In this document: positions 47,067 to 63,249 of the stretch, one piece after another | Position numbering within the stretch: the first letter of the stretch is position 1 | How the letters are laid out: each line of letters opens with the position of its first letter | Source: Flavobacteriales bacterium | GTDB taxonomy: Bacteria; Bacteroidota; Bacteroidia; Flavobacteriales_F; PHOS-HE28 | Direction: 5' to 3' | Assembly (NCBI GenBank): GCA_020635655.1 | Contig: JACJZI010000007.1 | Location: forward strand, 78,323-142,322 | DNA: 64,000 nucleotides | The notes under the pieces: generated by a model | The model's database searches: none | Seen by the model: the letters and a program-made list of their open reading frames with translations, nothing else | Told to the model about the DNA's origin: nothing | Translations under genes and position numbers: made by a program

Positions 47067-47138
47067 AGCCTCCCATCGGATTTGAACCGACGACCTGCTG
47101 ATTACGAATCAGCTGCTCTACCGCTGAGCTAAGGAGGC
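47067..47138 (-). tRNA. tRNA-Thr (anticodon CGU)
   Basis: The minus strand reads GCCTCCT TA GCTC AGCGGTA GAGC A GCTGA TTCGTAA TCAGC AGGTC GTCGG TTCAAAT CCGAT GGGAGGC T. This is a full cloverleaf with a 7-bp acceptor stem, a TTCAAAT T-loop and anticodon CGT. CCA is not encoded. Confidence 0.93.
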
Positions 47139-47169: not shown

Positions 47170-47211
47170 CTGCAAATGTATCGAACCGGCCCGATCGGTG
47201 GGCCGCCGGGT

Positions 47212-48489
47212 TCAGGGGCGAACGAAGCGCGCCGCCGCCTGCCCGCGCACCCGCAGCGTGTACGTCCCCGCAGCCATGCCGCTGACGTCCACCGCCTGCG
47301 ATCCCGCGCCATCCAGCACCAGCGTGCGCACGATCCGCCCCGCGGTGTCGAGGACCTCGAGCGCGTCCCCGAAATGTCCGCCGGTGATCCGGACCCGATC
47401 GGAGGCCACGGAGGGAACGACCTGCAGGATGGCGGGCTGCTGTTCCGGGATCCCGCTGGCGTTGCGCACGTCGAGCGCCAGGTTCCCCGGTGCGACACCC
47501 ACCGCGATGCTCGACAGTTCGTTCCCATCCGCATCCAGCACATGCAACGTGCCCGTGGTGGTGAAGTCCGTCGTGGTGGCGTAGAGCACATTGTTGACGG
47601 GGTCGTTCAGCAGGCAGTAGGTCGCCGGCGATGCGGCCAGCGTGTCCTGCACCTGTTGGGCGGTGAGGTCCCAGCGCGCCAGGTGACCGACAGCGTACTC
47701 CATGTAGTAGATCTTGTCCGTGGCCAATGCCGAGGCCCCGCAACCGGAGCTCGTCGCCACGTTCTGTGTGAACAGCCACTGCCCATTGGTCGCATCGATC
47801 CGGCTGATGGAGCTTCCGGTGAAATCCTTGTTGTTCAATACGTACAGGTCGCCGCTGTGCAGCATGATGTGCTCCGGGTTCAGCCCGTCCGGCCCCAGAT
47901 CGATCGACCCGGCATAACCCTGCGTCGTCAGGTCGACCACGCCGATGTAGCCGACCAGGTCGTTCCAGTCGAAGGCATTGTTCACCGCGAGGTAGGCCTT
48001 GTCGCCCATCACCTCGATGTCTTCGGCGGAATGTGCAAGACCATCGGCGGGATCGATGCTGTACATCAGGTGGAGATCACCGGCATCGCGCACCTCGAAG
48101 TAGTGGTCGAGCCCGCCCAGTTCTCCCCGGGTGAGCAGGACCTCGTCGTTCCAGAAGGCGAGCTTGCGGATGCCCGCTACCTGCGTCTGGCCGAGCACCT
48201 GGTAGGTGTCCGCGTCGTACTTCAGCAGTTGGTCGTCCGCCGCCACGTAGATGGCGCCATCGTGCACCTGCACGTCGGTGGCGAAGCGGGGACCGGTGAT
48301 GGTGGCCACGGTCTGGTAGGTCATCGCCAGCGGATCATAGCTGCCCAGCGTGACCGGAACCACCTGGGTCTGGGCATTGGTGTCGTAGTACCCCTCATTG
48401 AGCACGAGCACCTGATGGACGTCGGACTGTGCCCCGGCGGGGTGGATCGCGGCGATCAACGTGATCGCCAAAAAGAGCTTTCGGTACAT
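47212..48489 (-). CDS. T9SS-sorted beta-propeller protein (YncE/DUF5074-like cell-surface protein)
   Basis: Start at ATG 48489 (MYRKLFLAITLIAAIHPAGAQ). Repeated blade-like segments are present (VLVLNEG..., AIYVAADD..., KAYLAVNN..., DLYVLNN..., KIYYME..., VLYATTTD...). C-terminal sorting-domain-like tail reads RVRITGGHFGDALEVLDTAGRIVRTL...GMAAGTYTLRV. Preceded by a cobalamin riboswitch. Confidence 0.82.
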   Translation of the reverse strand: MYRKLFLAITLIAAIHPAGAQSDVHQVLVLNEGYYDTNAQTQVVPVTLGSYDPLAMTYQTVATITGPRFATDVQVHDGAIYVAADDQLLKYDADTYQVLGQTQVAGIRKLAFWNDEVLLTRGELGGLDHYFEVRDAGDLHLMYSIDPADGLAHSAEDIEVMGDKAYLAVNNAFDWNDLVGYIGVVDLTTQGYAGSIDLGPDGLNPEHIMLHSGDLYVLNNKDFTGSSISRIDATNGQWLFTQNVATSSGCGASALATDKIYYMEYAVGHLARWDLTAQQVQDTLAASPATYCLLNDPVNNVLYATTTDFTTTGTLHVLDADGNELSSIAVGVAPGNLALDVRNASGIPEQQPAILQVVPSVASDRVRITGGHFGDALEVLDTAGRIVRTLVLDGAGSQAVDVSGMAAGTYTLRVRGQAAARFVRP

Positions 48490-48600
48490 GGGAAGTTGGT
48501 TTTTGTCCGCCTTCTCCGGGCGGGGTGGAACAAGGACCTTCGGACGAACAGGGCACCTGTACCGCAAGCACCGCCTCGTTCCCGAAAGCCGGAACAGCGC

Positions 48601-48766
48601 AGGAGGGCAGGTCTTCTGGCTCACCTCGCTCCGCGGAGCGCCTTCCCATCCACCCGACGGTGGTCAGTGGCACATGCTCCGCTTCACCGGAGGTTCACAG
48701 CTGCGGGAACAGCTCCCGGTTCGCACGGGATTCCCTTTTCACCCCCGAAGGCCGGGGGACCCTCCT
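48601..48766 (-). promoter_or_regulatory. cobalamin (B12) riboswitch aptamer; expression platform continues to the ATG at 48489
   Basis: The minus-strand RNA has a P1 helix AGGAGGG/CCCUCCU. The core reads AAAAGGGAAUCCCGUGCGAACCGGGAGCUGUUCCCGCAGCUGUGAA (GGGAA...GUG..AA.C...CCCGC..CUGU.A). It also contains GCCACUG...GGGAAGGC and the B12 box AGCCAGAAGACCUGCC (48606-48621). Confidence 0.85.
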
Positions 48767-48813
48767 ACGGCACGAAGGTAGCTGTCGATCCGGCTCGTCT
48801 AACTTGGCCCGCC

Positions 48814-49674
48814 ATGGCGGACGACGGATACGCGCTTCGGCCTCTTGACCTGGACGCGCGAGGGATCCCGGTGGTGGCGGCGTTGCTCCGTGAGGTGTTC
48901 CCGGATGCGGTCCACTTCATCGACGAAGTGGTGCGGTGGCAATACCTGGAGAACCCCGATGGACCTGCGGTCGGCTTCAACGCCTGGGCGAACGACGCGC
49001 TCGCCGCCCACTATGTCACCATTCCGCTCCGGGCCCTGGTGGATGGTCGGGAGGAACGCGGCCTGCTCTCGCTGAACACCGCCACGCATCCACGGCACCA
49101 GGGAAGGAAATTGTTCACGCGGCTCGCACAGGCCACCTACGATGAGGCCGCCCGGCAGGGGTATGGTTTCGTGGTGGGCGTGGCCAACGCCAACAGCACG
49201 CATGGCTTCACGCGGAAGCTCGGTTTCCAAGCCGTCTCTCCCCTGCTCGCACTCGTGGGCGCAGGACCCCTGCGCTTCGTACCCGAAGCTGAAGCACCGT
49301 GCTTCACGCCGCTGCACGGAACGGAGAAGATGGCCTGGCGGCTGGCGCATCCCGCACACCGGTACACGGTCGCCCGGCAAGGCCGGCGGGCGTTCATCCT
49401 GTCGGAAAGGACCATGAAGGGGGCGCGGTTCATCCTGGGTGTCGACGATCCGGAGCAGGTCCCTCCCGCGCTCATGCACGCACGCATGCCTCGCGTGAAG
49501 GCCTTCATCGGCCTCGACCCGGCGATCGACCGGAAGCGTTCCATCTACCTGAACGTACCGATGCGTTTTCGGCCGGCCCCGCTCAACTTCATCTGGAAGG
49601 ACCTCTCCGGACAGGCACGGTCGCTCGACGCGGAGCGCGTTCGCTTCCACGCGTTCGACTTCGATACGCTCTGA
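48814..49674 (+). CDS. GNAT family N-acetyltransferase
   Basis: This is the real 3' part of the chimeric 832-aa track ORF. Start at ATG 48814. Acetyl-CoA motif region reads LNTATHPRHQGRKLFTRLAQATYDEA. GC3-rich only from 48814 onward. Confidence 0.78.
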   Translation: MADDGYALRPLDLDARGIPVVAALLREVFPDAVHFIDEVVRWQYLENPDGPAVGFNAWANDALAAHYVTIPLRALVDGREERGLLSLNTATHPRHQGRKLFTRLAQATYDEAARQGYGFVVGVANANSTHGFTRKLGFQAVSPLLALVGAGPLRFVPEAEAPCFTPLHGTEKMAWRLAHPAHRYTVARQGRRAFILSERTMKGARFILGVDDPEQVPPALMHARMPRVKAFIGLDPAIDRKRSIYLNVPMRFRPAPLNFIWKDLSGQARSLDAERVRFHAFDFDTL

Positions 49675-56357: not shown

Positions 56358-56849
56358 TCAGGAGAGGAGCCGCTGGCGCAGTGCGAACTCCAATTGTCGG
56401 TTCGCCTCGATCAATTGCTCGGTGCGGACATTGCGTTCATCCTCGGCCTTGACCTCCGCATAGGCCTGATGCACTGCCCGGACCAGTTCATGGGGGTCCC
56501 AGGGTTTGGCCATGTAATGCGAAATGCCACCCTGGTTCACGGCGTTCACCACGGCCTGCATGTCCGCGTAGCCGGTCATGAGCATGCGCCGAACGCGCGG
56601 GAATCGTTCCCGCACCAGTTTGAGGATCTCATGTCCCGGCGTACCCGGCATGCGTTGGTCGCTGATCAGTACATCGATCCGGTCGGTGGACAGGAACGAC
56701 CACGCCTCTTCCAGTCCTGAGGCCGTGTAAACATGGAATTCACGGCCGAAAGCGGCCGCGAACGCCTGCCGGTTCGGGGCGTCGTCATCAACGAAGAGGA
56801 CGGTGGGACGCTCGAGCTGTGGCGGATGGTCGAACATACGTGTTGCCAT
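56358..56849 (-). CDS. stand-alone response regulator (REC domain + short C-terminal helix)
   Basis: 163-aa ORF. Contains VLFVDDD, the phospho-acceptor context VLISDQRMPG, MTGYAD and KPWD. Confidence 0.9.
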   Translation of the reverse strand: MATRMFDHPPQLERPTVLFVDDDAPNRQAFAAAFGREFHVYTASGLEEAWSFLSTDRIDVLISDQRMPGTPGHEILKLVRERFPRVRRMLMTGYADMQAVVNAVNQGGISHYMAKPWDPHELVRAVHQAYAEVKAEDERNVRTEQLIEANRQLEFALRQRLLS

Positions 56850-57009
56850 GATGATCGGATGGAGGATTGCTTGTCCTACCTACGCGAACTGGCCTGTTCG
56901 GGTTTCACGGTAGCGTCCAAAATGTTCATAAATTGTTAATAACTCAAAGTTGACTAGCTTTACCGCTGCGTGGGACCTTGTGGTCCTTCGCGGACCTCTT
57001 CAGCGACCA

Positions 57010-58161
57010 ATGGACGACCTGGCCCTTGCCCTGGCCAAAGTGTCGGATGCGGACCACCGGACCTACCTACCGGAGATCCTGCACCCCACACGATCGGAGG
57101 AACGAGCACGTCTCATGATGTTGCTCGCCGAACGGGGTATTCGCGTACACGACGTGCTCCATGGGCAGGTCCGCGAATTGATACGGACCCATTCCCCCGA
57201 CCGTCGATCCTCGCCTGAGGAACTCGACCGTGCTGCGGACGCGCACCTGCAAGGGCACGGACCCGGGATGTACGGGGTGTGGGTCCATTATCCCTGGAGC
57301 GGTCGATTGGTGCACATGTTGGACGAGGAGGAATTCGCCCTTGTTCGAACCGACCGCAACCGGAACAAGATCACGCGGGAGGAACAACAGGTGCTGTCCA
57401 CCAAGAAGGTCGGTGTCATCGGGCTTTCCGTGGGGCAGTCCGTCGCACTGACCATGGCCTTGGAGCGTGGATTCGGGGAGATCCGGCTTGCCGACCATGA
57501 CATCCTGGAGCTCAGCAACCTCAATCGGATCCGCTCCGGTGTGCATGCCCTGGGAGCGAACAAGGTGATCAACGTGGCCCGTGAGATCGCGGAGATCGAC
57601 CCCTTCCTGAAGGTCGTTTGCTTCACTGAAGGCATCGATCGGGACAATATCAATGCATTCCTTACGGACGGCGGGGATCTCGACATCCTGATCGAGGAAT
57701 GCGACAGCGTGGATGTGAAGGTCTATGCGCGCCAGCATGCGAAGCGTCTTGGAATACCGGTCGTCATGGACACCAGCGACCGCGGACTCGTGGATGTGGA
57801 GCGATTCGACCTGGAACCCGAGCGGCCGATCCTGCATGGGTTGATCGATGATCTGGACCTGGCGGTGGTCGAACGCCCGATGTCCGACCTGGAGAAGATG
57901 CCGTTCCTCGGCAGGATGGTCGGCATGGAGACACTGAGCGATCGAATGAAGCGTTCGTTGCCGGAGGTGGGCAAGACCCTTGTGACCTGGCCACAATTGG
58001 CCAGCGGGGTCGTTCTTGGTGGAGCCCTAGTCACCGAGATCGTGCGCCGTGTGCTCCTCGGTATCCACCAACCATCGGGCAGGTGGTGGAACGATTTTCT
58101 GACCGGATCGACCAGCGCCATGCCACAAATGGAACCGACCCGTTCGAACTCTGAAGAATGA
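57010..58161 (+). CDS. ThiF/MoeB/E1-superfamily adenylyltransferase-like protein (no CxxC pairs, no rhodanese; resembles the N-terminal half of Rv1355c/MoeY-type proteins)
   Basis: Start set at ATG 57010; the track ORF begins at TTG 56950. Nucleotide-binding region reads KKVGVIGLSVGQSVALTMALERGFGEIRLADHDILELSNLNRI. Stop overlaps the next start (ATGA). Confidence 0.8.
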   Translation: MDDLALALAKVSDADHRTYLPEILHPTRSEERARLMMLLAERGIRVHDVLHGQVRELIRTHSPDRRSSPEELDRAADAHLQGHGPGMYGVWVHYPWSGRLVHMLDEEEFALVRTDRNRNKITREEQQVLSTKKVGVIGLSVGQSVALTMALERGFGEIRLADHDILELSNLNRIRSGVHALGANKVINVAREIAEIDPFLKVVCFTEGIDRDNINAFLTDGGDLDILIEECDSVDVKVYARQHAKRLGIPVVMDTSDRGLVDVERFDLEPERPILHGLIDDLDLAVVERPMSDLEKMPFLGRMVGMETLSDRMKRSLPEVGKTLVTWPQLASGVVLGGALVTEIVRRVLLGIHQPSGRWWNDFLTGSTSAMPQMEPTRSNSEE

Positions 58162-58925
58162 CCCTCGAACGAAAGGACATGGAAACCATCAAGCTCTACG
58201 CCTTTCCCGCTCCGAAAGAGCCTGATCTCTGCGGGGAGTTCCTTCGGGAGCACAGGAAGGTCCTCGAGGACTTCGGTATCTCACAGGTGACCACGAACAA
58301 TGATCGCTGGACGAAGGACCCCAACACCTATGTGATCGTGGCACTTCATCCCCGGCATGGGATGGTGGGTGGGATCCGGCTGCAGCTCCAATCCAATGAA
58401 CCGCTGCCGATGGAGGAGGCCCTGCGCAAGCTCGACCCACGGATAACCGAGGTGCTCAACGAGCTGAAGGACCACGGCAATGGTGAGGTCTGTGGGCTAT
58501 GGAACGCCAACAGGTTCGCCAATCATGGGATACCGATCCTCCTGAGCAAGGCCGTCACCGCCATCTCGGTCATGGCCAATGCCCGCCGCATGGTCTGTCT
58601 TGTGGCCCATTACACGCAGCGCCATCCCAGGAGGAACGGGTTCGTCGTGATCGACACGATCGGGGATTCAGGAAGGTTCAGCTATCCCATCCCCAGCATC
58701 ACCGCCATCGCGATGGTCAATCCGGATACGATGATCCTGGAACATGCCATGGATGAACAGCGCCAGCAGATCTTCAGCCTGCGACTGCGGCCACAGCAGG
58801 ATCGGATCGAATATCCTGCGGGTGAACCCATTCTCGTCGAATACGACCTGCGTGTGAATACCAATCTGCTCGACCTGCATGCCTACCAAAGCATCCAGAC
58901 CGAGCGTATGCGCTACAGCGCCTAG
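58158..58925 (+). CDS. hypothetical protein, possible GNAT-fold acyltransferase
   Basis: 255-aa ORF, GC3-rich and translationally coupled to the E1-like gene. The segment EVCGLWNANRFANHGIPILLSKAVTAIS resembles GNAT motif A (R..G.G/A then a helix). The family assignment is tentative. Confidence 0.55.
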   Translation: MTLERKDMETIKLYAFPAPKEPDLCGEFLREHRKVLEDFGISQVTTNNDRWTKDPNTYVIVALHPRHGMVGGIRLQLQSNEPLPMEEALRKLDPRITEVLNELKDHGNGEVCGLWNANRFANHGIPILLSKAVTAISVMANARRMVCLVAHYTQRHPRRNGFVVIDTIGDSGRFSYPIPSITAIAMVNPDTMILEHAMDEQRQQIFSLRLRPQQDRIEYPAGEPILVEYDLRVNTNLLDLHAYQSIQTERMRYSA

Positions 58926-58966: not shown

Positions 58967-61111
58967 ATGCAAGGTATGGTCCGCTCGATCGTTCAACTCG
59001 CGATCATGGTGCTGCCGGTGTTCATGTGCCGGGCCCAGGACACCATTGCATTCCCACAACAGGCCGAACGGCCGGTGGGAGCTCTCTTCCAGTTCCTCGA
59101 GGACAGCATTGGGAGCATGTCCCTGAAGGAAGCCGTCCATGACCGGAATTACCGTCCACTGGAACAGGACGTACCCAACCTTGGAACATCGGGTTCGGTC
59201 TTCTGGGCAAGGGCAGTGATCAAGAACAACTCAGAGAAAAGGGAGGTGGTCCTGTCCCTGCCACACCCGGAGATAGACCTGTTGGATGTTTATATCCTGG
59301 AGCGATCGGCCCCGGTCCACCTTGCCCATGTCGGCCAAAGCGTTCCACGTGATCAACGGATCGCATCCGACCCTGAATTCCTCTTCCGACTTCCCATCCC
59401 GTCCGGGGCATCCTTGCCCGTGCTGCTCCGCGTACAAAGCAACAAGCAACTGCAGCTTCCACTGATCCTGACCACGGACTCCGAGTTCGACCAACATCGC
59501 GCAGGCCGGAACCTGTTCCTGGGCGGCTATATGGGGATCATGCTGGTCATGGCGATCTACAACCTGTTCGTGTTCTTCTCCTTCCGCGAACGGAGCTATT
59601 TCCTCTACGTTGTCTATATCCTGTTCGTCTGTTGCACACAGCTTGCGTTCATCGGTATCGGACCATTCTATCTCTGGGCGGGAAGTGTGTGGATCTCCAG
59701 CAAAGCATCGTTGATCCTGACCCTGCTGACCGCGATGGCCGCAAGCGAGTTCATCCGTTCGTTCCTTCGCACAAAGGAGTACATACCCAAGATCGACGGT
59801 ACTATCCCGTACTTCTACGGGCTCTTCCTTCTCAACATCGCGATCTACTTGTTCGTGAGCCCGACCACGGGATACAAGGTCGCCCAGTTGATCTCCGGCA
59901 TGTTCGCTTTCACCTTGCTGGGAATGATCATAGCCGTCTGGAGAAAGGGAGTGCGGCAAGCCGGCTTCATGTTGCTGGCATGGAGCGCCTTCCTCACCGG
60001 CACAATGGTCTTCGTGATGAAGGACATGGGCATCCTCCCCTACAACTCCATCACCATCTATACCATGCCCGTCGGCTCGGCGATCGAGGGCGTCCTGCTC
60101 TCCTTCGGCCTGGCCGACCGCATCAACATCCTGCGTCGCGAGAAGGAACGCTCGCAGGCCGACGCGCTCCGGATCTCACGCGAGAACGAGCGCATCATCC
60201 GCGAACAGAACGTGATCCTAGACCAGAAGGTGAAGGAACGCACCCTGGAACTGCAGGAATCGAACGAGCACCTGAAGCGCACCCAGACCCAACTGGTGAA
60301 CGCCGAGAAGATGGCCTCGTTGGGCCAGCTCACCGCCGGCATCGCGCACGAGATCAACAACCCGGTGAACTTCATCACCAGCAACATCCCTCCATTGCGC
60401 AGGAACCTCGACGAGATGTTGCAGATCCTGAAGGCCTATCGGAGCATGGGACCCGATGCGACGAGCGACCAGATCGCCGCGATCGTCGACATGGCCGGGG
60501 AACTGGACCTTGACGAATCCCTGAACGAACTACCGGACATCATCGCCAGCATCGAGGAGGGCGCCGACCGCACCACCGAGATCGTACGCGGGCTCCGGAA
60601 CTTCAGTCGGTTGGACGAGGACAGCCTCAAACCGGCCGACATCAACGAGGGCATCCGCTCGACCCTGACGGTGCTCGGCTCCGAGCTCCGGGACCAGGTG
60701 GAGATCGAGCTGGACCTGGAGCCCCTGCCCCAGGTGGAATGCTTCCCGGGCAAGCTCAATCAGGTGTTCATGAACATGCTGAACAATGCCATGCAAGCCA
60801 CCCGCCAGCGCTATGGCGGCGACCGCAAGGGACACATCCGTGTGCGCACCAGCGCCACGGACCAGGAAGTGACCATCCGCATCGAGGACGACGGTACGGG
60901 CATGACGCCCGAGGTCGTCTCCCGGATCTATGAACCCTTCTTCACCACCAAGGACGTGGGTGAAGGCACCGGTCTGGGCCTGAGTATCGCATACGGTATC
61001 ATCGAAAGGCACCACGGACGGATCGGCGTGGAGAGCACACCCGGTGTCGGGACCATATTCCAGGTAAGCCTGCCGATCCATCAGCCCCGTGTGGCACAGA
61101 AACGCGCGTGA
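58967..61111 (+). CDS. 7TMR-DISM sensor histidine kinase
   Basis: 714-aa ORF. Has a signal/extracellular DISMED2-like domain, seven predicted TM helices and a coiled coil. HisKA box is AGIAHEINNPVNFI. HATPase boxes include NNAMQAT and DDGTGM...GEGTGLGLSI. Confidence 0.9.
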   Translation: MQGMVRSIVQLAIMVLPVFMCRAQDTIAFPQQAERPVGALFQFLEDSIGSMSLKEAVHDRNYRPLEQDVPNLGTSGSVFWARAVIKNNSEKREVVLSLPHPEIDLLDVYILERSAPVHLAHVGQSVPRDQRIASDPEFLFRLPIPSGASLPVLLRVQSNKQLQLPLILTTDSEFDQHRAGRNLFLGGYMGIMLVMAIYNLFVFFSFRERSYFLYVVYILFVCCTQLAFIGIGPFYLWAGSVWISSKASLILTLLTAMAASEFIRSFLRTKEYIPKIDGTIPYFYGLFLLNIAIYLFVSPTTGYKVAQLISGMFAFTLLGMIIAVWRKGVRQAGFMLLAWSAFLTGTMVFVMKDMGILPYNSITIYTMPVGSAIEGVLLSFGLADRINILRREKERSQADALRISRENERIIREQNVILDQKVKERTLELQESNEHLKRTQTQLVNAEKMASLGQLTAGIAHEINNPVNFITSNIPPLRRNLDEMLQILKAYRSMGPDATSDQIAAIVDMAGELDLDESLNELPDIIASIEEGADRTTEIVRGLRNFSRLDEDSLKPADINEGIRSTLTVLGSELRDQVEIELDLEPLPQVECFPGKLNQVFMNMLNNAMQATRQRYGGDRKGHIRVRTSATDQEVTIRIEDDGTGMTPEVVSRIYEPFFTTKDVGEGTGLGLSIAYGIIERHHGRIGVESTPGVGTIFQVSLPIHQPRVAQKRA

Positions 61112-62637
61112 TCATGCAGAAGGAACGGATCAAAGTGCTGTATGTGGACGACGAGGAAGGGAACCTTCGTTCGTTCAAGGCCAACTTCCGTCGCGACTTC
61201 GACGTGCACATCGCTTCCTCAGCGAAGGAGGCCCTTGAAGTGCTCGCGAAGGAGCACATGCACGTGGTGATCTCCGACCAGCGCATGCCCGGTGAGAACG
61301 GTGCCGAACTGCTGGCGCAGGTGAAGGAGCTGCACCCCTCGGCCATCCGCATGCTGCTGACCGGCTATGCGGATATCCAGGCGGTCATCGATGCGGTGAA
61401 CAAAGGCCGCATCTATGCCTACACCACCAAACCCTGGGACCCCAGCGACCTGAAGCTGCGCATCCAACAGGCGTACGAGGTCTATCGGCTCCGCAATGAA
61501 AAGGACCAGCTCCTTCGTCGCTACCAACAGGTGTTCGCCGCCTCGGGTGACCCCATCGTGATCGTGGACGAGAATGGTACCATCGCCGAATTGAACCCGG
61601 CGCTCGAGCAGCTCATCGGCAGTGACCGGGCGACCCTCATCCGAGGGGGCCTCACCAGTCTGATCACCGACATGGAAGACCTCCGCAAGGCCTTGCGTGG
61701 ACGGCGCAAGGGCAAGTCCTTCCAGAATGTCGACCTTACCCTGAATACGCCGGACGGACGTACCATCGACTGTCTGCTGACCGTGTCCCTGCTCGGCAAC
61801 AACAGCGAAGGGAAGCGCCTGTATCAGGCGATCATCAAGGATATCACGGACCGCAAGCAGGAGGAGGAGCGCCTGCGCAAATTGAACTACGATCTCGACC
61901 GGCGGGTGTCCGTGCGCACCAAACAGTTGCTCGAGGCACTCGAGGACCTCGGCTCGTTCAGCTACACGGTGGCCCACGACCTGCGCTCCCCCCTGAAGAA
62001 CATCCTCGCGCTCTCGGACCTCCAACTGGAGCAATTGTCCGGGAAAGTGGAGGAACAGGACCTCGCGGAACGGATCCATCGGGGGGCCGAGCGCATGATC
62101 CAACTGGTCGACGATCTGCTTCGGTTCGCGCAGACCAATACCCGCGAGCTGCAGCGGGAGGAAGTGGACATGCATGTCCTTGTGGAGCAATTGGTCCACG
62201 AACTGCCCTCCGCGGGTCATGCCCCGACGATTGTCAATTCAGTTCCACCAGGATCCCTGGTCAAAGTGGACCGCGCCATGATGAGCGTCCTGTTGCAGAA
62301 CCTGATCTCGAACGCGGTGAAATTCACGCGCTCCGTCACCGCCCCACGCGTGGAGATCGGTCTGGACACGGAACCCGAGGGCCACCAACTCTGGGTGAAG
62401 GACAATGGCGTGGGCTTCGATGGCAGTGGCTCCAAGCTCGTGTTCGCTGCATTCAAGCGGATGCATCGAGCGGACCAGTTCGAGGGGAACGGGGTCGGAC
62501 TGGCCATCGTGCAGCGCATTGTCAACAAACACGGGGGTGAGGTCTGGGCCGAAAGCAGGCCCGGGCATGGGACCACCATCCATGTTCGGATACCCACCGG
62601 GGCGGCCATTGAACAGGCCCTGCCCTTCGCTTCCTGA
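61108..62637 (+). CDS. hybrid REC-PAS-histidine kinase
   Basis: 509-aa ORF. GTG 61108 overlaps the upstream stop; ATG 61114 is an alternative start. REC region has VLYVDDE, VVISDQRMPG, LTGYAD and KPWD. A PAS region follows. HisKA box is FSYTVAHDLRSPL. HATPase region has DNGVGF...GNGVGLAI. Confidence 0.9.
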   Translation: MIMQKERIKVLYVDDEEGNLRSFKANFRRDFDVHIASSAKEALEVLAKEHMHVVISDQRMPGENGAELLAQVKELHPSAIRMLLTGYADIQAVIDAVNKGRIYAYTTKPWDPSDLKLRIQQAYEVYRLRNEKDQLLRRYQQVFAASGDPIVIVDENGTIAELNPALEQLIGSDRATLIRGGLTSLITDMEDLRKALRGRRKGKSFQNVDLTLNTPDGRTIDCLLTVSLLGNNSEGKRLYQAIIKDITDRKQEEERLRKLNYDLDRRVSVRTKQLLEALEDLGSFSYTVAHDLRSPLKNILALSDLQLEQLSGKVEEQDLAERIHRGAERMIQLVDDLLRFAQTNTRELQREEVDMHVLVEQLVHELPSAGHAPTIVNSVPPGSLVKVDRAMMSVLLQNLISNAVKFTRSVTAPRVEIGLDTEPEGHQLWVKDNGVGFDGSGSKLVFAAFKRMHRADQFEGNGVGLAIVQRIVNKHGGEVWAESRPGHGTTIHVRIPTGAAIEQALPFAS

Positions 62638-62724: not shown

Positions 62725-63249
62725 ATGATGAAGCAACATCTCCTTTTCACCGCCATGGCCGTCGCCATCGGCATCAACTCCCAAGCCCAAGGCCGACGAC
62801 TGGTCGACGAACGCGACCAGGCCCAGGGCTGGTATCTCCCCGTCCATGGTGAAGTGCTGGTGGACGGCAAACGGATCAACGACTACCAGATCGACCTCTA
62901 CAAGGGCGATGAACGCCTCGGTGAGGTGGCCGTGAAGAAGAACGGGAAGTTCGAGCTCGACCTGGATATCGACAATACGTTCATGATCCGTGTGCACAAG
63001 GAGGGCTATCAGGACAAGCTGGTGCTCATCGACACCTCCCTACCGCCCGACCTGGTCACCTATCCGGACTATGAGTGCTTTGTCAGCCTGACGCCAGTGG
63101 AGAAGGAGAAAGGGATCGACGTGTTCTACACCGATTTCCCGTCGGCCATCGTCCGCTACAACGAGGAAATGGGCGGCTTCTACCACAGCGAGCACTACCT
63201 GGAGCACATCCAGAACAAGCTGTCAGGCGTGGCACAGGCCAGCTTCTGA
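62725..63249 (+). CDS. small secreted protein, minimal member of the paralog family (N-module only)
   Basis: 174-aa ORF with signal peptide MMKQHLLFTAMAVAIGINSQAQ. The segment GKFELDLDIDNTFMIRVHKEGYQDKLVLIDTSLPPD...PSAIVRYNEEMGGFYHSEHYLEHIQNKL aligns to the N-modules of the 383-aa and 1280-aa proteins. Confidence 0.75.
   Translation: MMKQHLLFTAMAVAIGINSQAQGRRLVDERDQAQGWYLPVHGEVLVDGKRINDYQIDLYKGDERLGEVAVKKNGKFELDLDIDNTFMIRVHKEGYQDKLVLIDTSLPPDLVTYPDYECFVSLTPVEKEKGIDVFYTDFPSAIVRYNEEMGGFYHSEHYLEHIQNKLSGVAQASF

Follow-up and report, generated by a model that had tools for sequence, protein, structure and literature searches.

An oxidase-less relative of the oxazolone synthetases, probably co-transcribed with a sensor-kinase cascade, in Flavobacteriales

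What might an E1/ThiF-like adenylyltransferase and a GNAT-like partner make when their genes head an apparent operon of sensor kinases, and could the kinases be responding to the product? This question is raised by a locus of a Flavobacteriales bacterium (GCA_020635655.1). We analysed a 64,000-nt stretch of contig JACJZI010000007.1 (positions 78,323–142,322), hereafter the window; coordinates below are positions in it (Table 1). Gene pairs of this kind are customarily annotated as 'molybdopterin/thiamine biosynthesis adenylyltransferase' and 'hypothetical protein'.

Table 1. Features of the locus, in window coordinates.
Feature	Position	Strand	Basis
Stand-alone receiver-domain response regulator, 163 aa	56358..56849	-	Pfam Response_reg, E 1.4e-19
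Conserved upstream element	56923..56962	+	Motif comparison across related loci
ThiF-like ATP-dependent cyclase, 383 aa	57010..58161	+	Pfam PF00899, NCBIfam NF005901
TrzA-like N-acyl amino acid synthase, 248 aa	58179..58925	+	hhalign, Foldseek; start inferred
7TMR-DISM sensor histidine kinase	58967..61111	+	Pfam domains
Hybrid REC-PAS-HisKA-HATPase kinase	61108..62637	+	Pfam, sequence, synteny
Conserved 174-aa protein, signal-peptide-like N-terminus	62725..63249	+	ORF, synteny

The gene order described in a first-pass annotation of this DNA was found again: a second ORF, ending at 58925, follows the ThiF gene, and two sensor kinase genes follow on the same strand, the first after 41 nt. The second kinase gene overlaps the TGA of the first if it starts at GTG 61108; a start at ATG 61114 would place it 2 nt past that TGA. 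The receiver gene is divergent from the synthase genes. The first-pass annotation had also started the second ORF, at 255 aa, within an ATGA overlap with the ThiF stop. This overlap is present at 58158, but the most likely start is M8, at 58179 (248 aa), which is used in nearly all homologs and in the window's own gene call (P0001, 248 aa). At the closest related locus (L001), the ThiF stop TAA is followed by 18 nt and an ATG, with no overlapping ATG. The gap between the two genes is thus probably 17 nt, which is tight, and stop/start coupling is at most a possibility.

The 383-aa protein has the ThiF fold attributed to it earlier (Pfam PF00899, E 3.9e-19). It also matched the NCBIfam model NF005901, 'Rv1355c family' (E 3.4e-137, 458.7 bits, model positions 5–335 of 722), with a score just below the NCBIfam cut-off of 476, as one half of the model finds no counterpart in the protein. 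The protein is 40% identical to Mycobacterium tuberculosis TrzS across the ThiF half; for the Rhodococcus and Mycolicibacterium homologs, the figure is 43%. The residues G135xxGLSxG142, R159, D162xD164, S169NxNR173, K185, and E230-C-D232 were invariant across the window, Flavobacteriales, M. tuberculosis, Rhodococcus, Mycolicibacterium, and Streptomyces proteins; the nucleotide-binding loop is intact, and so is the adenylation Asp, which belongs to the class of residue changed in TrzS D217A. A Foldseek search with an AF2 model (pLDDT 87) matched AclA, PaaA, ThiF, MccB, and TcdA. As the first-pass annotation had observed, the features of a sulfur-carrier or ubiquitin-like E1 are missing: the protein has two Cys only (C204, C231) and neither a CxxC nor a rhodanese domain, and no GG-ending ORF of 50–130 aa was found between 51 and 64 kb of the window. 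An ordinary MoeB/ThiF, the outcome that would have spoken against that earlier reading, was not seen, as the NCBIfam ThiF and MoeB models scored 39–67 bits against cut-offs of 152–376. Judged by its sequence, the protein corresponds to the ThiF-like cyclase half of Rv1355c/TrzS proteins and is no sulfur-carrier E1.

The HMM searches that had been proposed for both proteins placed the ThiF protein in the Rv1355c family and gave no match for its partner, whether in Pfam (E ≤ 10) or NCBIfam (E ≤ 0.01); a PADLOC scan was likewise empty, and phmmer against PDB sequences returned nothing meaningful. The earlier GNAT-like call, which has no Pfam or NCBIfam match behind it, is borne out by fold. The best Foldseek matches of the AF2 model (pLDDT 90.5) were BjaI, MesI, FeeM, EsaI, and TofI, with FeeM and LuxI/BjaI-type folds the closest solved ones (E 2e-8 to 2e-7, TM 0.63–0.72 on target); the family profile run against PDB gave weak generic GNAT matches only (E 0.006). 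A relation to TrzA was seen only after deeper alignments of both families had been built. In hhalign, the alignment of the window acyltransferase family (A3) matched that of the TrzA family (A2, first sequence M. tuberculosis Rv1356c) with a probability of 97.45% and an E-value of 9.1e-12 over 194 columns, at 16% identity. A shallow alignment (A1) compared with single actinobacterial neighbour proteins gave nothing significant. The 248-aa protein is most likely a remote homolog of TrzA in the AHL-synthase/FeeM branch of the GNAT fold, as the profiles and the model suggest. A natural fusion of an Rv1355c-type ThiF protein with this acyltransferase also exists (P0384), from which the two proteins would be predicted to form a complex. 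The acyltransferases form a sizeable family, defined here with 568 representatives at 50% clustering, for which there is no Pfam or NCBIfam model. Two candidate actinobacterial members were rejected: a Mycolicibacterium plasmid neighbour (L070, 6097–7011) is a TraD/TrwB-like protein, and a Streptomyces partner is an unrelated Acetyltransf_3 GNAT.

By homology, the pair belongs to the described oxazolone synthetases OxzAB (bioRxiv 10.1101/2020.06.11.147165), TyzACB (PMC10404671), and TrzAS (PMC12856293), as a Flavobacteriales version without the oxidase domain. A TrzS/TyzB/OxzB-type cyclase with intact nucleotide-binding and adenylation residues lies next to a TrzA/TyzA/OxzA-type synthase, and no flavin-dependent oxidase is fused or adjacent to them. 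The supposition of the first-pass annotation that an adenylating enzyme and an acyltransferase act on a small molecule is supported. It had not recognised the gene combination as a described system, but it is one: a ThiF-like cyclase with an N-acyl amino acid synthase is the combination found in all three systems, and NCBIfam already holds the 'Rv1355c family' model. What does appear undescribed is the oxidase-less version of the pathway.

The ThiF protein ends in a linker at the point where its relatives run on into a flavin-dependent oxidase (nitroreductase) domain. No Pfam nitroreductase match was detected in the 383-aa protein, and tblastn of three fused oxidase domains against the 64-kb window found no homolog (best E 0.48). 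Among 67 related loci, the oxidase domain was present in 44 (ThiF ORFs of 757–790 aa) and absent in 22 (374–402 aa), and no oxidase was found within ±10 kb of these 22 loci. The oxidase state switched at least three times in 100 of 100 bootstrap trees. The family also includes a split arrangement: in L076, a separate nitroreductase-family gene of 342 aa precedes an acyltransferase gene. Between two oxidase-less genomes, the window and L001, dN/dS was 0.18 for the ThiF gene and 0.08 for the acyltransferase gene, values that indicate purifying selection on both, the oxidase state notwithstanding. A reading of the pair as a decaying remnant was rejected on the basis of this dN/dS range (0.08–0.18) and because 22 independent genomes carry the ORFs undamaged. 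The oxidase has been lost repeatedly under selection that tolerates its loss, which suggests a function of their own for the N-acyl amino acid or the saturated azlactone and bears on which molecule of the pathway is the active one.

An AT-rich patch upstream of the ThiF gene, taken by the first-pass annotation to be consistent with one promoter for the whole set, was confirmed as the GC minimum of the neighbourhood (56900–56999, 0.47 vs. 0.50–0.71). Inside it lies a single conserved promoter-like element, which accords with the one-promoter proposal. This element was found 70–93 nt upstream of the ThiF start (at 41 nt in one case) in 42 of 62 related loci; it has a single copy in the window and none elsewhere in 1.13 Mb of loci. 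Its promoter-like pair consists of ATTG at −33 (56932–56935), a 19-nt spacer and TAGCTTTA at −7 (56955–56962), and is overlapped by a tandem TGTTnAnAA repeat (56923–56942). The Bacteroidota promoter consensus is TTTG-N19-TAnnTTTG. An exact TAnnTTTG is absent from the window's intergenic region, the conserved box being one base off, and by its likeness to the consensus the element is promoter-like, a candidate of the Bacteroidota type that would put the transcription start at about 56968–56972. A sigma-70 promoter scan of the plus strand, which does not model Bacteroidota promoters, found nothing, and an Rfam scan of the operon leader found no RNA element. Terminator-like matches were at background level, and the 41-nt gap between the acyltransferase and kinase genes held no terminator-like or promoter-like site. 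The synthase genes, the 7TMR-DISM kinase and the REC-PAS kinase are probably on one transcript from one conserved promoter.

The first kinase has the RetS/LadS-type 7TMR-DISM architecture, with DISMED2 (PF07696, E 8.7e-24) and 7TM (PF07695, E 7.3e-47) domains ahead of a kinase core (HisKA and HATPase_c, the latter with E 3e-25). A gene for such a kinase lies directly 3' of the acyltransferase gene in every locus with enough flank, and a fused acyltransferase/7TMR-DISM gene call exists. Co-occurrence of the pair with 7TMR-DISM kinases in other Bacteroidota, which the first-pass annotation had suggested surveying, was seen at all 63 informative loci at the species level and in a further six contexts that are more distant. 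The whole block (response regulator, ThiF(-oxidase), acyltransferase, 7TMR-DISM kinase, REC-PAS kinase) is kept in every informative locus, and the linkage holds at 24–35% acyltransferase identity. Nearly all related loci have the receiver gene in the corresponding place. In most loci, the second kinase gene is followed by the gene of the 174-aa protein, which had no significant Pfam or NCBIfam match and perhaps closes the block. Relative to L001, dN/dS was 0.09 for the receiver, 0.08 for the REC-PAS kinase, and 0.11 for the 174-aa protein. Part of this synteny is shared ancestry, because all loci come from one order. The block linking oxazolone-type genes to a kinase cascade appears to be undescribed.

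As a homolog of TrzA, TyzA, and OxzA, the 248-aa acyltransferase would join acyl-CoA or acyl-ACP to a free amino acid, giving an N-acyl amino acid. The ThiF-like enzyme, a homolog of TrzS, TyzB, and OxzB, would adenylate the carboxylate of this compound with ATP, and attack by the amide oxygen would close the ring to a 5(4H)-oxazolone (azlactone). As it lacks the oxidase domain, this locus would be unable to carry out the flavin/O2-dependent Cα–Cβ desaturation to a stable yellow tyrazolone or tryptazolone. The pathway is predicted to end in the N-acyl amino acid and its saturated oxazolone, and an unsaturated N-acyl 4-arylidene-oxazolone would be unexpected. [quoted passage not shown] In TrzS, cyclisation requires ATP, and the cyclised, non-oxidised intermediate piles up at limiting O2 or with an impaired oxidase (R540A) (PMC12856293).

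On the basis of synteny, it is plausible that the product is a signal for the adjacent kinases. A small-lipid signal synthase would be coupled to its own sensory phosphorelay, in a layout analogous to luxM-luxN, cqsA-cqsS, and rpfF-rpfC. We have moderate confidence in the overall reading, in which an oxazolone-synthetase-type pathway without oxidase is probably co-transcribed with the kinases and, in biological terms, most likely represents a signal synthase with its own phosphorelay. More doubtful is a broader proposal: in many Flavobacteriales, N-acyl amino acid/oxazolone lipids would be self-made cognate ligands of a dedicated 7TMR-DISM phosphorelay, with the saturated azlactone as the signal where the oxidase has been lost. 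If so, this would be new cell–cell or self-sensing chemistry in Bacteroidota, and the azlactone, a reactive acyl donor, might serve as a signal that limits itself or carries over very short distances only, or might even form a covalent acyl adduct with its receptor or some other nucleophile. The saturated azlactone may, on the other hand, be too short-lived for a diffusible signal. To our knowledge, an autoinducer synthase family has yet to be established for Bacteroidota. Literature searches on 7TMR-DISM together with N-acyl amino acids, and on AclA of Tenacibaculum discolor, found nothing.

Synteny would fit a kinase that senses the product as well as a kinase cascade that controls the enzymes. 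It is possible, if less than probable, that the kinases do not sense the compound at all and that the two-component proteins time lipid synthesis or answer an external cue (envelope stress, antibiotics), the product being a membrane lipid, an antimicrobial, or a stress metabolite. Two-component genes beside biosynthetic genes are commonly regulators, and sub-lethal antibiotics induce oxazolone production in proteobacteria. The M. tuberculosis tyz genes, too, have been linked to oxidative stress (PMC10404671). However, neither the 163-aa receiver protein nor the other response-regulator/receiver proteins of the block, three in all, have a DNA-binding output domain, here or in distant loci, which argues against a simple role as regulator of the biosynthetic genes. 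The synthase genes also head the same apparent operon as the kinases instead of lying opposite a regulator, and the linkage persists to 24% acyltransferase identity. We consider it unlikely that the oxidase is provided in trans by a separate nitroreductase-family gene at another place in the genome, which would yield an ordinary unsaturated N-acyl oxazolone. Repeated clean domain deletions are more simply explained by loss of the step, and neither the window nor the flanks of the 22 oxidase-less loci hold an oxidase homolog, although split arrangements exist (TyzB/TyzC and L076) and cyclisation and desaturation need not follow a fixed order in the Tyz system (PMC12856293).

Two further explanations concern the chemistry itself. 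The Foldseek matches to PaaA and MccB, with long alignments reaching the N-terminal region, and the weak matches of PADLOC E1-E2 models to the Rossmann region could point to activation of a peptide or protein C-terminus, as in MccB/PaaA-like RiPP synthesis, ubiquitin-like conjugation, or defence, with the GNAT protein acylating the product. This is very improbable: the PADLOC matches, including those to anti-phage (CBASS Cap2-like) models, do not exceed 44 bits and cover residues ~108–253 only; no E2 or JAB gene is among the neighbours in the window, nor is there a YcaO partner, and the stretch from 51 to 64 kb holds no small precursor or GG-ending ORF; and the specific family is that of the small-molecule cyclase TrzS, with a TrzA homolog as partner. 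We give equally little credence to a classical AHL system in which a kinase would be the receptor and the acyltransferase a LuxI/BjaI-type acyl-homoserine-lactone synthase. Its best structural matches are indeed the CoA-dependent AHL synthases BjaI and MesI, but no Pfam/NCBIfam autoinducer-synthase match appeared even at E ≤ 10, the profile comparison points to TrzA, an enzyme that acylates free tryptophan, and an obligately linked ATP-dependent cyclase would be needless for an AHL synthase.

The preferred reading, an oxidase-less oxazolone-type pathway tied to a kinase cascade, would matter in several ways. Both papers characterising oxazolone pathways leave the physiological role of the lipids open and raise signalling only as speculation. 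Synthase genes locked to a sensor kinase cascade across an order offer a specific receptor candidate, and the conserved block hints, in a way open to test, at a signalling role for lipids that are so far poorly understood. The oxazolone-type assignment also corrects the customary annotation of the pair.

Among the known systems, the N-acyl tryptazolone pathway TrzAS (Rv1356c/Rv1355c) of M. tuberculosis, M. smegmatis, and Rhodococcus jostii (PMC12856293) shares a cyclase of the same NCBIfam family, an acyltransferase remotely homologous to that of the window, and two adjacent genes on one strand. The M. tuberculosis trzA-trzS locus was re-identified in our analysis, and both loci adjoin signalling genes (c-di-GMP enzymes in M. 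tuberculosis, kinases in the window). In contrast to TrzAS, the window pair lacks the flavin-dependent oxidase domain, has the reverse gene order (cyclase first), and occurs in Bacteroidota, inside an apparent histidine-kinase operon; its acyltransferase is very divergent, with the 16% identity of the profile alignment and no match in single-sequence tests. OxzAB, which makes tyrazolones and phenazolones in Pseudoalteromonas rubra and other proteobacteria (bioRxiv 10.1101/2020.06.11.147165), follows the same two-enzyme logic, an N-acyltransferase providing an N-acyl amino acid that the ThiF domain cyclises with ATP. OxzB, however, is a ThiF-nitroreductase fusion from a ThiF subcluster other than that of TrzS, and no kinase linkage has been reported for it. 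TyzACB of M. tuberculosis (PMC10404671) has, like the window, a stand-alone ThiF-like cyclase without fused oxidase (TyzB), and TyzA has a FeeM/BjaI-like fold, with the same reported neighbours, BjaI and FeeM, as the window acyltransferase; it differs in needing a separate adjacent oxidase gene, tyzC, for the final product, for which no equivalent was found in the window.

FeeM-type N-acyl amino acid synthases and LuxI/BjaI acyl-HSL synthases come nearest to the 248-aa protein among solved folds, but share no sequence family with it (no Pfam match) and act without a ThiF partner. The luxM-luxN, cqsA-cqsS, and rpfF-rpfC-rpfG loci are quorum-sensing loci with a synthase gene beside a sensor kinase gene. 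Their enzyme and receptor families are unrelated to those of the window locus; the likeness is one of layout, in which the gene of a small-lipid signal synthase, putative in the window, directly adjoins that of a membrane histidine kinase, and the phosphorelay has no local DNA-binding regulator.

All the ORFs listed in the first-pass annotation are present in the window, and the 383-aa protein has the ThiF fold ascribed to it there. As that annotation had also stated, the protein carries no rhodanese domain or zinc-binding CxxC pair; it has two cysteines. A search of the 51–64 kb region for ORFs of 50–130 aa with a Gly-Gly C-terminus found none. Its NCBIfam match was NF005901, "Rv1355c family protein" (E 3.4e-137), of which it covers only model positions 5–335 of 722. 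Every NCBIfam model for ThiF, MoeB, MoeZ or TcdA scored far under its cut-off, and these assignments were rejected. Identity was 40% to the Mycobacterium tuberculosis (Mtb) oxazolone synthetase protein TrzS, across the ThiF half, and 43% to Rhodococcus and Mycolicibacterium homologs. The glycine loop, D162xD164, S169NxNR173, K185, and E230-C-D232 were invariant in the alignment. The protein ends about 20 residues past the conserved SGRW motif, where its relatives run on via a linker into an oxidase domain. Its AlphaFold model (pLDDT 87) has a ThiF fold, with AclA, PaaA, ThiF, MccB, and TcdA as the nearest solved structures. The top neighbor was AclA of Tenacibaculum discolor, another flavobacterium (PDB 9egb, a 2025 entry; TM 0.80 on target, 18% identity).

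Features of the window discussed in the text
Feature	Position	Strand	Basis or remark
tRNA gene	47067-47138	-	window scan
Cobalamin riboswitch RF00174, 113 bits	48589-48779	-	window scan
FAD-dependent protein, 421 aa	53160-54425	+	best Pfam match Trp_halogenase, E 2.6e-22
M1-family peptidase, 625 aa	54435-56315	-	beside the divergent receiver in almost all of the related loci
Stand-alone receiver protein, divergent	56358-56849	-	Pfam
Upstream element: TGTTCATAAATTGTTAATAA, 12 nt, TAGCTTTA	56923-56942, 56955-56962	+	AT-rich patch
ThiF-like protein (cyclase), 383 aa	57010-58161	+	ThiF domain PF00899, E 3.9e-19 (Pfam)
TrzA-like acyltransferase, 248 aa	start M8, 17 nt after cyclase; end 58925	+	recorded gene call, homolog starts
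Sensor kinase, 7TMR-DISMED2/7TM/HisKA/HATPase	start 41 nt after second ORF	+	Pfam
REC-PAS-HisKA-HATPase kinase	start GTG 61108 (overlaps first kinase's stop) or ATG 61114 (2 nt after)	+	Pfam, sequence
ORF174, 174 aa, signal-peptide-like N-terminus, no family match	62725-63249	+	sequence, synteny

The second gene had been read as starting within the cyclase stop codon (ATGA). Against this stand the recorded gene call of 248 aa, the starts of nearly all homologs at the M8 position (consensus M-E/D-x-I-x-L-x-A-F), and the closest relative, L001, whose junction reads TAA, 18 nt, ATG, with no overlapping ATG. The ATGA at 58158 is probably not the true start; with the start at M8, the two genes lie 17 nt apart. 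Scans of the acyltransferase with Pfam, NCBIfam, and PADLOC yielded no family match. Its AlphaFold model (pLDDT 90.5) best matched BjaI, MesI, FeeM, EsaI, and TofI, all from the GNAT-fold branch that comprises acyl-HSL synthases and N-acyl amino acid synthases; the same structural neighbors were reported for TyzA (PMC10404671). An exhaustive profile search collected 568 cluster representatives of the family (403 at E ≤ 1e-10), mostly 225–255 aa long. The TrzA family set was seeded with the gene adjoining the Rv1355c homolog of a Rhodococcus plasmid, and the Mtb protein was among its matches. Profile–profile comparison of the two families (97.45% probability, E 9.1e-12, 194 columns) aligned the motifs VGG(I/V)R, E-x-x-x-x-W, and YP, and thus marks the second protein as a remote TrzA homolog. 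In P0384 (632 aa), an Rv1355c-type ThiF protein is naturally fused to an acyltransferase of the window's family, which supports the two enzymes working together.

Fusions of the acyltransferase domain to other domains were also seen (P0346, P0312, and P0291; loci L075 and L076). Those to a TIR domain (P0346) and to leucine-rich repeats (P0312) hint at uses beyond the kinase-linked cassette. One gene call, P0291, joins it to a 7TMR-DISMED2/7TM sensor; this call lies on a contig of 3.8 kb and may therefore stem from misassembly or a frameshift.

The neighborhood scan, with one genome per GTDB species, yielded 67 loci, all from Flavobacteriales or unclassified Bacteroidota MAGs. The co-occurrence of the pair with 7TMR-DISM kinases in other Bacteroidota, put forward earlier for survey, was found in every sufficiently flanked locus, always in the order receiver (- strand), ThiF with or without a flavin-dependent oxidase domain (FDO), acyltransferase, 7TMR-DISM kinase, and REC-PAS kinase. 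In the four loci without a kinase match, the contig edge was <1 kb from the acyltransferase gene. The cyclase–acyltransferase spacing ranged from -46 to +38 nt. Among distant acyltransferase relatives (24–42% identity), kinase linkage was kept in six contexts (L072, L073/L074, L076, L078, L079, and L081). A two-component kinase, of the 7TMR-DISM type in five of the six, lay directly downstream in all but L079, and the stand-alone receiver was also downstream. The kinase-less exceptions were the ThiF–acyltransferase fusion (L071) and the leucine-rich repeat fusion (L075). No receiver protein in any version of the block had a DNA-binding domain. The gene intervening before the kinase in L079 (1431-2072) encodes an ICMT/PEMT-family methyltransferase, which could methyl-esterify the N-acyl amino acid.

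Both kinases described downstream of the pair, and the 41-nt gap before the first, were recovered; the described stop overlap of the second holds only if GTG 61108 is used and not ATG 61114. No promoter-like or terminator-like feature was detected in the 41-nt gap, and no leader RNA by Rfam. The AT-rich patch noted just upstream of the pair was evident as the lowest GC of the neighborhood (0.47, 100-nt bin 56900-56999). In 42 of 62 loci, TGTTnAnAAnnTGTTnATAA followed by TA(G/C)nTT(T/C)(G/A) was located upstream of the ThiF gene, at a distance of 70–93 nt from its start except in one locus (41 nt); the element was present as a single copy in the window, and no further copies were found elsewhere in 1.13 Mb of locus sequence. 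The Bacteroidota promoter consensus is TTTG-N19-TAnnTTTG. With one mismatch to it per box, the element is a putative promoter of the operon and may include an operator repeat.

ORF174 is present downstream of the second kinase in about 53 of the 67 loci; it is under purifying selection (dN/dS 0.11) and may belong to the module as well. The M1 peptidase is either a member of the conserved neighborhood or simply lineage synteny. The Trp_halogenase-like gene, which precedes the cyclase gene by 2.6 kb, is syntenic in only about 10 related loci; a role in tailoring the product is conceivable, since the known oxazolones are built from aromatic amino acids. The + strand ORF 47176-49674, which spans the cobalamin riboswitch, is probably no gene, and the riboswitch most likely targets the - strand ORF ending at 47212.

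The ThiF ORF was 757–790 aa long (ThiF-FDO) in 44 of the 67 related loci and 374–402 aa in 22 loci and the window. No oxidase homolog was found within the 64-kb window or within 10 kb on either side of the short-form loci. A neighbor-joining tree (53 taxa; 1752 columns from five proteins, concatenated) required four changes of oxidase presence (at least three in 100/100 bootstrap replicates), and placed the window and L001 as an oxidase-less pair whose sister clade has the oxidase. For this pair, dN/dS was 0.18 for ThiF, 0.08 for the acyltransferase, and 0.08–0.11 for the kinases, receiver, and ORF174 (dS 0.8–1.3). These results mark the short form as kept and functional, not as a product of decay.

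Oxidase-less Rv1355c-type ThiF genes on Streptomyces and Kitasatospora plasmids overlap a GNAT gene of another kind. In L069 (5917-7715, Streptomyces sp. NBC_01471 plasmid; NF005901, 422 bits), the ThiF gene runs into an unrelated Acetyltransf_3 GNAT gene with overlapping stop and start, and a MerR regulator adjoins. Three further plasmids of Streptomyces and Kitasatospora gave similar ThiF-only matches. Actinomycetota thus seem to have a distinct pairing of an oxidase-less ThiF gene with a GNAT gene.

By homology, the acyltransferase would form an N-acyl amino acid, the carboxylate of which the ThiF enzyme would adenylate, with the amide oxygen closing the 5(4H)-oxazolone ring. With the oxidase missing, the pathway should go no further than the saturated azlactone. 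Saturated azlactones are activated acyl donors. Either compound, N-acyl amino acid or azlactone, may be the ligand of the 7TMR-DISM kinase; alternatively, the azlactone may covalently modify something. The kinases could also simply control the pathway, as in regulated biosynthesis, but the block includes no DNA-binding regulator and the synthase–kinase linkage is deep; for these reasons, a synthase accompanied by its sensor is favored, only modestly.

In the characterized TrzAS system, TrzA (Rv1356c) and TrzS (Rv1355c) produce N-acyl tryptazolones: TrzA N-acylates L-Trp with acyl-CoA as donor, and TrzS cyclizes N-acyl-Trp with ATP and then desaturates it with O2 (PMC12856293). Cyclization precedes oxidation, and the cyclized, non-oxidized intermediate is detectable under limiting O2 or with a crippled oxidase; oxazolones undergo hydrolysis in acid and alcoholysis (PMC12856293). 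The same logic has been demonstrated for OxzAB in proteobacteria (bioRxiv 10.1101/2020.06.11.147165) and TyzACB in M. tuberculosis (PMC10404671). We re-identified the Mtb locus as EAL, 230-aa TrzA, 715-aa ThiF+nitroreductase, and GAF-GGDEF-EAL. GGDEF/EAL c-di-GMP enzymes flank actinobacterial trzAS on the Rhodococcus plasmid (L068, 1696-2778) and the Mtb chromosome (L077, 3596-4429 and 7846-9717); oxazolone genes therefore adjoin signaling genes, of another kind, in a second phylum too. OxzB homologs were reported only from proteobacteria (bioRxiv 10.1101/2020.06.11.147165) and TrzS relatives mainly from Actinomycetota (PMC12856293), and OxzB was the only oxazolone-forming small-molecule ThiF-like enzyme discussed in a 2025 review. 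Neither the Bacteroidota cassette nor its linkage to kinases nor the repeated loss of the oxidase was described in the literature searched and read. The first-pass annotation did not recognize the gene combination as a described system, but a ThiF cyclase with an acyltransferase is of the known oxazolone synthetase kind. The window has a pair of the same kind as these synthetases but lacks their defining oxidase; because this domain was sought and is absent, the locus is classed as an oxidase-less variant of the oxazolone synthetases and not as a full member.
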